Assembly: GCA_964589775.1 (NCBI GenBank)
Contig: CAZPUN010000006.1
Span: 1-16,905 of the forward strand
Direction: 5' to 3'
DNA from: an uncultured archaeon
Lineage (GTDB): Archaea > Asgardarchaeota > Thorarchaeia > Thorarchaeales > CAZPUN01
DNA: 16,905 nucleotides
The translations under genes were made by a program, and so were the position numbers. Numbering within the stretch: the stretch's first letter is position 1; every line of letters starts with the position of its first letter. Positions 2,253-5,536 of this stretch are shown in pieces. The notes below the pieces were generated by a model, which saw only the letters and a list, made by a program, of their open reading frames with translations, did no database searches and was not told the origin of the DNA.

Positions 2253-3326
2253 ATGAACCATAAAAAGTTGTTCATCCCCGGTCCTACCGAAGTAGCACCT
2301 GAAGTTTTAATGGAACAGGCAAACTTAATGATTGGGCACAGAAGTGCCGAATACACTGAACTTTATGTTGATATTATTGAAAAAGTAAAGAAATATTTCA
2401 AGACGAAGCAAAATGCGACAGTCTTGACTTCTTCTGGAACCCTTTGGATGGATATTACAGCAAGAAACTTGGTAGCAAAGAAGGCATTATCCGCTGTGAA
2501 CGGAGCATTTTCAGAGCGTATGTATAAAGCAATCAAGAATTCTGGAAAGGAAGTAGATCCACTAAATGTGGAATGGGGTAAAGCTGTGAAACCTGAAATG
2601 GTCATTGAGCAGCTGAGCAAGGGCGACTATGATGTTTTTACAGTAGCACAAAATGAGACTTCAACTGGTGTTCGAAGTCCTGTTGCTGAAATTGGAAAGG
2701 CAATCAAGAAAGAATTTCCGGATGTAACCTATGTTGTAGATGCAGTATCTTCTGCAGGTGGAGACCTTATACTCCCAGATGAGATTCAGTCAGACCTATT
2801 ATTCACATCCTCTCAGAAGTGTTTTGCATTACCTCCGGGTCTTTCGATTGCGATTGTGTCTGATGCCGCAATTGAGAAAGCAAAAACCGTTCCCGGACGT
2901 GGATTTTACACAGATCTTGTATATATGTTCGATTACTATGCTCGTAAGCATCAAAATCACGCTACACCTAATGTATCTCTCATGTACGCACTCAGTTATC
3001 AGTTAGACCGCATGCTTAAAGAAACTCCTGAAGGCCGATATCAACGACACTTAGAAATGGCAAAATACACGATCAATTGGGCGAACAAGCATTTTGAAAT
3101 GTTCTCTGAGAAAGGATATGAATCTGTTACTGTATCTACAATTAAGAACACTCTTGGAAAGAACATTGCGGAGCTTAATAAGGAATTAGGAAAGCGTGGT
3201 TATCAAATTTCAAACGGATATGGAAAACTAAAGGAGCAAACCTTTAGAATTGGACACATGGGTGAATGGAGCTTAGATGACGTAAAAGGTCTGATCTGGC
3301 ATATTGAAGATATCTGGGGGCTATAG
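2253..3326 (+). CDS. PLP-dependent class-V aminotransferase (serine-pyruvate/alanine-glyoxylate family; probable phosphoserine aminotransferase by context)
   Basis: Motifs FIPGPT, IGHRS, NETSTG, VDAVSS, SSQK (PLP lysine)-CFALPPG and FRIGHMG. Start placed at ATG 2253 because GGTGA at 2243-2247 is an SD; ATG 2241 is the alternative. Confidence 0.9.
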   Translation: MNHKKLFIPGPTEVAPEVLMEQANLMIGHRSAEYTELYVDIIEKVKKYFKTKQNATVLTSSGTLWMDITARNLVAKKALSAVNGAFSERMYKAIKNSGKEVDPLNVEWGKAVKPEMVIEQLSKGDYDVFTVAQNETSTGVRSPVAEIGKAIKKEFPDVTYVVDAVSSAGGDLILPDEIQSDLLFTSSQKCFALPPGLSIAIVSDAAIEKAKTVPGRGFYTDLVYMFDYYARKHQNHATPNVSLMYALSYQLDRMLKETPEGRYQRHLEMAKYTINWANKHFEMFSEKGYESVTVSTIKNTLGKNIAELNKELGKRGYQISNGYGKLKEQTFRIGHMGEWSLDDVKGLIWHIEDIWGL

Positions 3327-3329
3327 AAA

Positions 3330-4229
3330 ATGAAAGTTTTAGTCTCCGATAAAATTGCGAGTGAAGGAGTTCAAAAGCTCAAGGATGCTGGTTTTGAAGT
3401 TGTTGAAGCATGGGATGTAGATAAAGAGAAAATTCCTGATTTGATTAAGGATTGCGACGCTATCATTGTTCGAAGTGCTACAAAAGTTCGAAAGCCTATG
3501 ATCGATAACGCACCGAAATTAAAGGTTATCGGGCGTGCTGGCGTAGGTTTGGATAACATCGATGTTGAATATGCAAAAAGTAAAGGAATTAAAGTTATAA
3601 ACACGCCCGGCGCAACTACAGTTTCGGTAGCCGAACTAACTATTGCTCTTATGTTGGCTTCTGTACGCCCTCTCATTCAAGCTGTCATATCAACAAAGAT
3701 GGGGAAATGGGAAAAGAAGAAACTAAAGGGTCATGAACTCTTTGGAAAAACATTAGGAATCATTGGTATCGGTCGTATTGGTCAAGCAGTAGCAGAACGA
3801 GCTAAGGCTTTTGGAATGAAGATTATTGCGTATGATAAGTATATCAAAGATTCCGGATACAAAATGGTAGATTTAGATACAATATACAAAGAAAGTGATA
3901 TTATTACCATCCATACGCCACTAACAGATGAGACAAAGCACTTGATAAACTCTGAAACGATAGCCAAAATGAAAGATGGAGTAATAATCATTAATGCAGC
4001 ACGTGGTGGAATCATCGATGAAGATGCTCTCTATGATGCGCTAAATTCCGGAAAAGTAAAAGCTGCAGCACTTGATGTCTTCGAAACCGAGCCACCTAAA
4101 GGAAGCAAGTTGCTCGAACTTGAAAACTTCATTTGTACACCACATATAGGAGCTCAGACTGCTGAAGGGCAATTAAGAGCAGGTGTAGAAGTCGCAGAAA
4201 AAGTAATTGAGGCATTAAAATCAGCATAG
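3330..4229 (+). CDS. serA: D-isomer-specific 2-hydroxyacid dehydrogenase, D-3-phosphoglycerate dehydrogenase-like, lacking C-terminal regulatory domains
   Basis: Motifs VRSATKV, RAGVGLDNID, Rossmann GIGRIG, catalytic NAARG / DVFETEP / TPHIGAQT. It is only 299 aa and starts 3 nt after the aminotransferase stop. Confidence 0.85.
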   Translation: MKVLVSDKIASEGVQKLKDAGFEVVEAWDVDKEKIPDLIKDCDAIIVRSATKVRKPMIDNAPKLKVIGRAGVGLDNIDVEYAKSKGIKVINTPGATTVSVAELTIALMLASVRPLIQAVISTKMGKWEKKKLKGHELFGKTLGIIGIGRIGQAVAERAKAFGMKIIAYDKYIKDSGYKMVDLDTIYKESDIITIHTPLTDETKHLINSETIAKMKDGVIIINAARGGIIDEDALYDALNSGKVKAAALDVFETEPPKGSKLLELENFICTPHIGAQTAEGQLRAGVEVAEKVIEALKSA

Positions 4230-4255
4230 AAAAAATAACGGAAAGGTGAGATGAA

Positions 4256-5536
4256 ATGGTCGAGATTAGACCGTTCAAAGCGATTAGATATACCGAAAAA
4301 GCGGGTGACATGAAGAATTTAATTACACAACCATATGATAAAATCGATAGTGAAATGCAGAACAAATATTACAAGGCAAGTGAATACAACTACTGCCGAC
4401 TTATTTTGCCAATTGAAGAAGACCGTTATGAGATTGCTAAAGAACGCTTGAACAAGTGGATCAATGAAGGGATTCTCAAAAAGGATGAAGATGCCGGGCT
4501 CTATGTTTATTTCCAAGAATTTGAAGTGTTAGGCGAACGATATATTCGAAAAGGTTTCATTAGTGCTGTAAAGCTCCATCCTTATGAAGAAAACGTAGTT
4601 TTGCCACACGAAAAGACACACAAAGGACCTAAAATCGACCGACTGAACATGCTTAGAGCAACATTGAAGAATCTTGAAATGGGCTTCATGTTATATTCTG
4701 ATCCTAAGAAAGAAACAATAAAAATTTTTGAAGAGTTGGCAAAAACAAATCCCATGGTTGATGTCATTGATGAATACGGCGTAAGAAACAAAGTATGGAA
4801 ACTTAAAGACCCTGAAAAGATCAAGCGTGTCCAAGAAGTTCTAAAGCCTGAGCAAATTGTGATCGCAGATGGGCATCATAGATATGAAACTGCAGTTACT
4901 TTCCGTGATGAATTACGTGAGAAGCATAAGGATTGGACCGAGGATGACGCTTTTAATTTTAGAATGACTTTACTTGTTCCCGTAGAAGATGAGGGGCTCG
5001 TAGTTTTGCCAAGTCATCGTGTATTGCTTAAACATAGTATTTCAGATGCTCATATTGATGAAATCAAAAAATACTTTGATACTAAAGATCTAAACGCCAA
5101 GGAAGTAAAAGAATTCCTGAAAGAAAATCGTGACAAGATCACATTTGTCATGTATGATGGAAATAGGTATCTCGGTATGATACTTAACGACATTAAAGCG
5201 GTAAATAAATTTCTAAATCCAGAATATAGCGATGAGTACAAGAAACTAGATGTCGTAATATTACGTGATGTTGTCTTTGAGGGCATCATGAACGCAAAGG
5301 GTCTGAAAATTCATGAGGATATTGATTATATTCGCTGGCTTGATGATGCAATTCAGTGGGTCGATGAAGGAAAAGCAAAGGTCGCATTCTTACTCAATGC
5401 TACCAAGCCCGAACAAGTTCTAAAAATTGCAAAGAATCATGAAAAGATGCCAGAAAAAAGTACAGATTTCTATCCAAAAATGGTTTCCGGTATTACCATG
5501 ATGGATATTACCCCAGGAGAAAAGTTGCCTAAGTAA
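4256..5536 (+). CDS. DUF1015 family protein (ParB/Srx-like motifs; candidate serine kinase/phosphoserine phosphotransferase)
   Basis: N-terminal IRPFKAIRY and PYDKI, then LPHEKT, IADGHHRYETA and C-terminal MPEKSTDFYPK, all hallmark DUF1015 motifs. SD GGTGA at 4245-4249. Confidence 0.88.
   Translation: MVEIRPFKAIRYTEKAGDMKNLITQPYDKIDSEMQNKYYKASEYNYCRLILPIEEDRYEIAKERLNKWINEGILKKDEDAGLYVYFQEFEVLGERYIRKGFISAVKLHPYEENVVLPHEKTHKGPKIDRLNMLRATLKNLEMGFMLYSDPKKETIKIFEELAKTNPMVDVIDEYGVRNKVWKLKDPEKIKRVQEVLKPEQIVIADGHHRYETAVTFRDELREKHKDWTEDDAFNFRMTLLVPVEDEGLVVLPSHRVLLKHSISDAHIDEIKKYFDTKDLNAKEVKEFLKENRDKITFVMYDGNRYLGMILNDIKAVNKFLNPEYSDEYKKLDVVILRDVVFEGIMNAKGLKIHEDIDYIRWLDDAIQWVDEGKAKVAFLLNATKPEQVLKIAKNHEKMPEKSTDFYPKMVSGITMMDITPGEKLPK

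Follow-up and report, generated by a model that had tools for sequence, protein, structure and literature searches.

The window analyzed here, the first 16,905 nucleotides of contig CAZPUN010000006.1 from an uncultured archaeon of the order Thorarchaeales (Asgardarchaeota), is 36% G+C and carries three consecutive plus-strand genes that encode a class-V aminotransferase, a D-3-phosphoglycerate dehydrogenase (PGDH) of the SerA type, and a protein of the DUF1015 family, also named SerBK. Our preferred reading, to which we assign a probability of roughly 0.7, is that these genes form one operon of the phosphorylated serine route, in which DUF1015 performs the serine/phosphoserine step and replaces the HAD-type phosphoserine phosphatase (PSP) SerB. 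SerA would interconvert 3-phosphoglycerate and 3-phosphohydroxypyruvate, the aminotransferase would interconvert 3-phosphohydroxypyruvate and O-phosphoserine, and DUF1015 would interconvert O-phosphoserine and serine in place of the canonical enzyme. Most likely, DUF1015 would shuttle a phosphoryl group between the hydroxyl of serine and a nucleotide in the manner of the free serine kinases SerK and SbnI; its DGHHR and C-terminal PxK(S/T)T motifs would form a ParB/Srx-type nucleotide site, and the glutamate of an HE motif would act as the base. Such an enzyme could operate in either direction, serving serine synthesis when phosphoserine is high and serine use when serine is plentiful. For DUF1015, the substrate and nucleotide named here, the part played by E119, the direction of the step in vivo, and the presence or absence of net hydrolysis are inferences; what the analysis shows is gene order, motifs, fold, invariance across the family, recurrent linkage to serine genes, and mutual exclusion with curated SerB in the phylum.

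The SerBK role of DUF1015 is already published, and this locus is a clear new archaeal, Asgard-type example of it and no discovery. Price et al. ("GapMind 2026"; bioRxiv 10.1101/2024.10.14.618325; PLoS Genet 2026, PMC13759103) named the DUF1015 family SerBK. In the account given in that article, Hofmann et al. (2018) had proposed a DUF1015 protein encoded in a serA-serC operon of C. difficile as the missing phosphatase (PMC13759103). The same article reports that DUF1015 homologues often adjoin serA and serC, that 47 of 50 genomes with close DUF1015 homologues are without SerB, that C. botulinum CBO1128 complements E. coli serB::kan, and that B. thetaiotaomicron BT1151 is required for the use of serine as a nitrogen source; it further gives SbnI as the best Foldseek match of SerBK, in which the residues for catalysis and ATP binding appear to be retained (PMC13759103). 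An initial reading of the window made from its letters alone (hereafter, the sequence-only reading) had proposed that DUF1015 interconverts serine and O-phosphoserine and had advised a search for prior assignments. The proposal is in large part supported by the fold, by the alignment of the DGHHR and PxKST motifs, by the SerA/aminotransferase context, by the mutual exclusion of DUF1015 and curated SerB in the phylum, and by the published genetics, but it is not new.

Open reading frame (ORF) calling placed the three genes as the sequence-only reading had described them, in one direction and separated by gaps of 3 nt (aminotransferase/SerA) and 26 nt (SerA/DUF1015). The aminotransferase start it had adopted is also the one we favor over an alternative ATG 12 nt upstream, because the homologues of this enzyme begin M-x-x-K-K-L-F-I-P-G-P. 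For the single promoter and terminal T-tract it had posited, we found by eye one candidate signal each (Table 1). The TATA-like box lies in a 150-nt AT-rich spacer upstream of the operon, which starts with a T-run after the stop codon of an amino-acid permease gene, and box and terminal T-run together fit one archaeal transcription unit. A scan for sigma-70 promoters and hairpin terminators returned the same counts as shuffled sequences; it is a bacterial-type scan and ill suited to an archaeon. The permease gene just upstream has its own T-run terminator, and a 311-aa ORF with no Pfam or NCBIfam match (window 5656–6591, plus strand) comes just after the operon. Both were considered as part of the unit and rejected, since neither stays beside the cassette in related loci. 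As the sequence-only reading had stated, the window holds no HAD-type SerB: no HAD/SerB gene was present among the window ORFs scanned, and a serB search of the window's own genome gave no match on this contig.

Pfam assigned the first gene to Aminotran_5 and the second to 2-Hacid_dh. The top PDB match of the aminotransferase was P. horikoshii 2dr1 (200.8 bits), followed by SerC 3ffr (116 bits). A genome search returned it as the sole SerC-like gene and found no classical SerC in the genome, which makes the operon aminotransferase the only candidate for a phosphoserine aminotransferase. The T. kodakarensis class-V enzyme TK1548 is taken to perform the phosphoserine/3-phosphohydroxypyruvate step, and the phosphoserine aminotransferase role is likewise ascribed to such class-V enzymes in Methanococcales. 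Against the PGDH model TIGR01327, the dehydrogenase scored 404 bits over model positions 1–303 of 525; it remained below the cut-off of 454 bits because the ACT and ASB domains are missing and only the catalytic and NAD domains were matched. Its top PDB matches were PGDH 1wwk from P. horikoshii (294 bits) and human PHGDH (278 bits), with glyoxylate reductases at ∼210 bits. It also matched a glyoxylate reductase model (258 bits), and no other gene of the genome makes a better PGDH candidate.

The DUF1015 gene is present in a single copy in this genome, and its product matched PF06245 over profile positions 1–324 of 325 (281.7 bits against a cut-off of 25.8; E 8.6e-84). We assessed residue invariance in two sets of homologues, 117 taken from the database and 89 taken from fetched loci. 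H118, E119, D205, G206, H207, H208, R209, R255, P399, K401, P407, and K408 were invariant in the 117, and P26-Y27-D28, T121, D128-R129, and T403 were also invariant in the 89 locus-derived proteins. The sequence-only reading had pointed to a P-H-E119 motif at 4604–4612 and to D205-GHHR. Translation confirmed both positions (P117-H118-E119 for the former), but P117 is not conserved among the 89 homologues (P in 48, R in 26, and Q in 10), and the motif is HE rather than PHE. In the AlphaFold model, DGHHR sits at the N terminus of helix 207–223.

The AlphaFold2 model of DUF1015, built on the homologue alignment, reached a pLDDT of 97.2 and a pTM of 0.93. When it was searched against the PDB with Foldseek, the nine best matches were all SerK, the P. 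furiosus homologue 1vk1, or SbnI (E 3e-8 to 2e-3; probability 1.0 to 0.99), and the next match had a probability of 0.1. VIA-align superposed model residues 91–420 on SerK 5x0k (Z 13.6, rmsd 5.7, 230 of 240 residues aligned) and aligned 220 residues with SbnI 5uje at a sequence identity of 7 to 9% (Z 11.8); beyond these two proteins came sulfiredoxin (Z 5.2) and the ParB N-domain (Z 3.8). The model thus supports for DUF1015 the two-domain fold of SerK and SbnI, with a ParB/Srx-like domain and a C-terminal domain. Because SerK and SbnI topped the fold searches and were the sole strong PDB matches, the lack of structural resemblance that the sequence-only reading had named as evidence against itself is not what we found. 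HMMER aligned the IADGHHRY of DUF1015 on SerK 64–75 (LIVDGHHRW at 66–74; D69-R73) and its C-terminal PxKST on SerK P220-K221-T222-T223. E119, which lies upstream of DGHHR and may share one site with it, may be the counterpart of the catalytic glutamate of SbnI (E20) or of SerK (E30, a position that we took from PDB titles). From E30 to D69 are 39 residues and from E119 to D205 are 86, in line with the earlier remark that a spacing of ∼86 aa is longer than that in SerK. By sequence, phmmer found no significant SerK homology for the DUF1015 protein, and a permissive Pfam scan of it found no match to the ParBc or SerK families. DUF1015 is a family separate from SerK and most likely similar to it in action.

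Table 1. Features of the proposed serine operon and of the DUF1015 protein, in window coordinates.
Feature	Position	Strand	Evidence or remark
TATA-like TTTATATT, candidate archaeal promoter	2214..2221	+	Read by eye; 20–32 nt upstream of both candidate ATGs
Class-V (AGXT/SGAT-type) aminotransferase, likely archaeal-type phosphoserine aminotransferase	2253..3326	+	PF00266, E 1.5e-22; alternative ATG at 2241
SerA, short ACT-less D-3-phosphoglycerate dehydrogenase, 299 aa	3330..4229	+	TIGR01327; PDB PGDH matches
DUF1015/SerBK, 426 aa, putative serine/phosphoserine phosphotransferase of SerK/SbnI fold	4256..5536	+	PF06245; model fold
P26-Y27-D28 motif, in N-terminal extension absent from SerK	4331..4339	+	Invariant in 89/89 locus-derived homologues
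H118-E119 (HE), candidate catalytic base	4607..4612	+	Invariant in 117 and 89 homologues
D205-G-H-H-R209, candidate nucleotide/phosphate-binding motif (position of ParB box II / Srx FGGCHR)	4868..4882	+	Invariant; HMMER alignment
R255, invariant arginine	5018..5020	+	Both homologue alignments
P399-x-K401-S-T403...P407-K408, C-terminal motif	5450..5479	+	Invariant; PxKST on SerK P220-T223
Run of six T, candidate archaeal terminator	5549..5554	+	Read by eye; 13 nt past the DUF1015 stop

Searches of the genome, which is 96.75% complete, found no SepRS, no TrpB or TrpB2, and no PALP-fold enzyme (CysK, TrpB, ThrC, Ser/Thr dehydratase); the genome does have an SHMT gene and a serine-dehydratase-alpha-like gene. 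Because no other consumer of phosphoserine was found, phosphoserine would have only two fates, serine or 3-phosphoglycerate, and with those two fates alone the operon would be a closed 3-phosphoglycerate/serine shunt. The missing PALP, SepRS, and TrpB2 genes point to an organism that is auxotrophic for several amino acids and lives by scavenging.

We were concerned with whether the genome encodes a SerB elsewhere, as the sequence-only reading had the pathway complete without one. No gene in the window's genome (G000) exceeded the TIGR00338 cut-off, but a PSP-like gene of the HAD-IB group came just below it (216 aa; contig 20, 59170–59793; minus strand, 1480–2130 in locus L001). The match to serB was full length, at 118.9 bits against a cut-off of 144.15, and the score against TIGR01491 was 141.9 against 151.9. 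The top PDB match of its product was M. jannaschii PSP (98.8 bits), and the DxDxT motif is kept as DxDGT. Where M. jannaschii PSP has R56, a residue that binds the substrate carboxylate, five of five proteins (G000 and four class orthologues) have Asp, in a cap region where the alignment is uncertain. The gene adjoins a Snf7/ESCRT-III gene and is not linked to serine genes. On the strength of this Asp and of the score gap to Asgard SerBs, the HAD-IB protein is probably not SerB, and its gene looks like a distinct orthologous group in the class.

Across the class (72 genomes), DUF1015 was present in 66 genomes and a serB-like HAD-IB gene in 71, all of the latter below the curated cut-off (64–141 bits). 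In a sample of the phylum (121 genomes), 64 genomes had DUF1015 above its cut-off (families f1, f2, f5, f9, f20, and f23) and 19 had a SerB above the cut-off (181–283 bits; families f3, f4, f7, f14, and f17); none had both and 38 had neither. This exclusion is supportive and not proof, because relatives are not independent. Five further genomes with the window's DUF1015 subtype or cassette also had no SerB above the cut-off, and both control genomes, B. thetaiotaomicron and M. acetivorans, carried SerB as well as DUF1015.

The phylum contains three DUF1015 subtypes, each tied to serine genes. The window's own subtype recurs in families f5 and f23 (57–62% identical), with an aminotransferase and SerA nearby in four of six loci. 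In the sister family f2 (L008–L019), the subtype is 30 to 34% identical to the window's, and a classical serC, 40 to 47% identical to E. coli SerC, follows directly in 10 of 12 loci. The third subtype, in f9 (L121–L124; ∼405 aa), is 25 to 30% identical and is adjoined by convergent SerA and aminotransferase genes in four of six loci. The order aminotransferase-SerA-DUF1015 recurs in L104, in an archaeal metagenome-assembled genome (MAG; L024), and in loci labeled Anaerolineae, Thermotogae, and Bipolaricaulota, as well as in f5 and f23; the cassette loci listed were L104, L024, L053, L066, L080, f5, and f23. A metagenome scan for related loci yielded three loci. One f5 genome (L116) carries two window-type DUF1015 copies ∼1.5 kb apart (6016–7287 and 8764–9747); a genome search showed an in-frame TAG in the second, perhaps a duplicate in decay.

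In a FastTree phylogeny, the window fell in a clade (support 1.0) with f5, f23, the metagenome locus L104, and MAGs labeled Aenigmatarchaeota, Nitrososphaerota, and DHVE2. Family f2 formed its own clade (support 1.0), and the common ancestor of the two clades spans 97 of the 101 leaves. Because the subtypes lie this far apart in the tree and the class-V aminotransferase is missing in 29 of 30 class relatives, sister family f2 included, the genome carries a serine cassette different from that of its sister family within the same order, by transfer or by differential loss.

Several observations weigh against assigning the serine/phosphoserine step to DUF1015. The genome does carry, elsewhere, the full-length HAD-IB PSP-like gene that scores just under the curated serB cut-offs. 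The anticorrelation of DUF1015 with serB that the sequence-only reading had proposed to test holds genome by genome (0/121 with both), but at the level of families the chance of zero overlap is ∼0.18 (5 of 23 families against 6). The window's protein is just 33 to 40% identical to bacterial family members (34–38% to those from Clostridia MAGs). Its similarity to SerK is marginal in sequence: a DUF1015 profile ranked SerK homologues first among PDB sequences at E 0.05 to 0.4. E119 was not placed on SerK E30 at residue level either by a subprofile of residues 88–262, which gave chance matches only among PDB sequences (NLRP9, E ∼1), or by a separately folded fragment 113–262 (pLDDT 90), which retrieved Noc, sulfiredoxin, ParB, and PadC at Z 5 to 6 and did not retrieve SerK. 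In a diverse set of 80 DUF1015 loci, serA or the aminotransferase lay within 6 kb in only ∼9, so that a serine role may not extend to every member of the Pfam family. The published functional support, from CBO1128 and BT1151, is genetic, and a reversed serine kinase is thermodynamically unfavorable, with K about 4e-4 (PMC13759103).

That equilibrium bears on the chemistry of the step. DUF1015 could instead be a hydrolytic, non-HAD phosphoserine phosphatase, with phosphoserine bound in the SerK-like site, water as the final acceptor, a nucleotide perhaps as cofactor, and a reaction as irreversible as that of SerB. Such an enzyme would avoid the unfavorable equilibrium of a reversed kinase, and it would suit the complementation of a serB deletion by a family member and the mutual exclusion of DUF1015 and curated SerB in the phylum. 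Other ParB-fold proteins hydrolyze NTPs, and the DUF1015 invariants absent from SerK (PYD at 26–28, D128-R129, and R255) could serve other chemistry. We consider hydrolysis unlikely, since the nearest folds are kinases and DUF1015 retains, without variation, the motifs with which SerK binds its nucleotide, and since it would leave the need for BT1151 when serine is the nitrogen source unexplained. If the HAD-IB protein is the real SerB, DUF1015 would be a serine kinase only, feeding serine into 3-phosphoglycerate for catabolism or gluconeogenesis, a role of the kind proposed for SerK in Thermococcus and BT1151 in Bacteroides. We judge this distinctly unlikely. The HAD-IB gene shows no linkage to serine genes, the serB cut-off is missed in all 72 class genomes when the phylum's true SerBs score 181 to 283 bits, and all five class orthologues have Asp at the R56-aligned position, within the uncertain cap alignment. 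These points have to be set against its full-length serB match (119 bits), its top PDB match to M. jannaschii PSP, its intact DxDxT, its occurrence in 71 of the 72 class genomes alongside DUF1015 in 66, and the two control organisms that carry both genes. An amino-acid permease directly upstream of the operon and a scavenger-like genome with no PALP-family enzyme would also agree with serine use, but the permease gene is followed by a T-run terminator specific to it and is not kept beside the cassette.

A third possibility leaves phosphoserine out altogether. In a nonphosphorylated route, DUF1015 would be a glycerate kinase or a 3-phosphoglycerate phosphotransferase, and the two genes before it would encode a serine:pyruvate/glyoxylate aminotransferase and a hydroxypyruvate reductase, respectively. 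The top NCBIfam and PDB relatives of the aminotransferase are indeed glyoxylate- or serine-type class-V enzymes, but in Thermococcus the role ascribed to such class-V enzymes is that of phosphoserine aminotransferase, and sister lineages pair DUF1015 with classical SerC, whose substrates are phosphorylated. The dehydrogenase, for its part, scores 404 bits where the PGDH cut-off is 454, and it matches a glyoxylate reductase model (258 bits); the shortfall is due to the missing ACT and ASB domains (positions 1–303 of 525 matched), and PDB PGDHs score 278 to 294 bits against ∼210 for glyoxylate reductases. Moreover, in its rescue of E. coli serB, CBO1128 can only have acted on phosphoserine, and we regard the nonphosphorylated route as highly improbable.

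The reading of the three genes as a phosphorylated-route operon with DUF1015 in the place of SerB bears on how such genomes are annotated. Predictions of amino-acid biosynthesis often show an apparent gap at phosphoserine phosphatase, more often than at most other steps, and the SerBK solution would extend to Asgard-type archaea, paired there with an archaeal class-V aminotransferase and a short SerA and excluding curated SerB one family at a time; in metabolic reconstruction, such genomes should not be labeled serine auxotrophs. We would also entertain, as a tentative and rather doubtful generalization, that the last serine step of Asgard archaea is catalyzed not by a phosphatase but by a reversible, nucleotide-coupled SerBK phosphotransferase (phosphoserine + AMP/ADP -> serine + ADP/ATP), for which three DUF1015 subtypes were recruited and from which SerB was excluded by lineage. 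If SerBK were reversible in this way, the whole path between 3-phosphoglycerate and serine would run both ways with the phosphoryl group conserved. Our analysis adds no new concept and does not advance the question of kinase versus phosphatase, for which this compact archaeal protein, with its confident model, is well suited.

The rest of the window holds features apart from the serine operon. At its start, and cut by it, is the C-terminal part of an ORF with bacterial thrombospondin type-3 (calcium-binding) repeats (3–632, plus strand). A MuiA-family DUF4139/DUF4140 gene (7398–9128, plus strand) is convergent with a gene for a Bax1-type endonuclease (9131–10399, minus strand; DUF790; NF053695, 154 bits), whose XPB helicase partner was not seen alongside among the ORFs scanned. 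Bax1 was tried as a yardstick of this genome's divergence from its class and proved a poor one (25–28% identity, 3 of 30 genomes). Along with the Snf7/ESCRT-III gene, it is in keeping with an archaeal genome. An ECF transporter module (10573–13372, plus strand) pairs a CbiQ-type T component with a double ATPase of 494 aa in which two ABC domains are fused. The gene that comes next, with an overlap, encodes a 4HBT thioesterase, and among the ORFs scanned none was recognized as an S component.

Among known systems, the published SerBK proteins (CDIF630erm_01132, CBO1128, and BT1151) are the closest to the window's DUF1015, which shares with them the full-length Pfam family, the invariant motifs, the structural match to SerK and SbnI, an operon that includes serA and a likely serC, and a genome in which no SerB passes the curated cut-off. 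It differs from them in being archaeal and in belonging to a separate clade (support 1.0), in its partners, an aminotransferase of class V (AGXT type) and a SerA with no ACT domain, and in the sub-threshold HAD-IB PSP-like gene of its genome; the genetic tests were made with CBO1128 and BT1151. SerK, the ADP-dependent free serine kinase TK0378 of T. kodakarensis (PDB 5x0b, 5x0e, 5x0g, 5x0j, and 5x0k; Makino 2016, PMC5120207; Nagata 2017), may, by one proposal, act together with PGDH and a class-V aminotransferase in turning serine into 3-phosphoglycerate (PMC5120207). The two proteins have in common the two-domain fold and the HMMER-aligned DGHHR and PK(S/T)T motifs. Whereas SerK has 242 aa and is not encoded in a serA/serC operon, the window's DUF1015 has 426 aa, with an N-terminal extension of ∼90 residues that includes the invariant PYD and with insertions, and lies in such an operon.

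SbnI (PDB 5uje, 6nr6, and 5ujd) is reported (Verstraete 2018) to be an ATP-dependent serine kinase of Staphylococcus. It has the same fold as DUF1015, but it is part of a siderophore (staphyloferrin B) cluster and is also a regulator. HAD-type SerB (TIGR00338; M. jannaschii PSP 1f5s) serves the same pathway step as that proposed for DUF1015 through an unrelated fold and chemistry, as an Asp-phosphoenzyme hydrolase.

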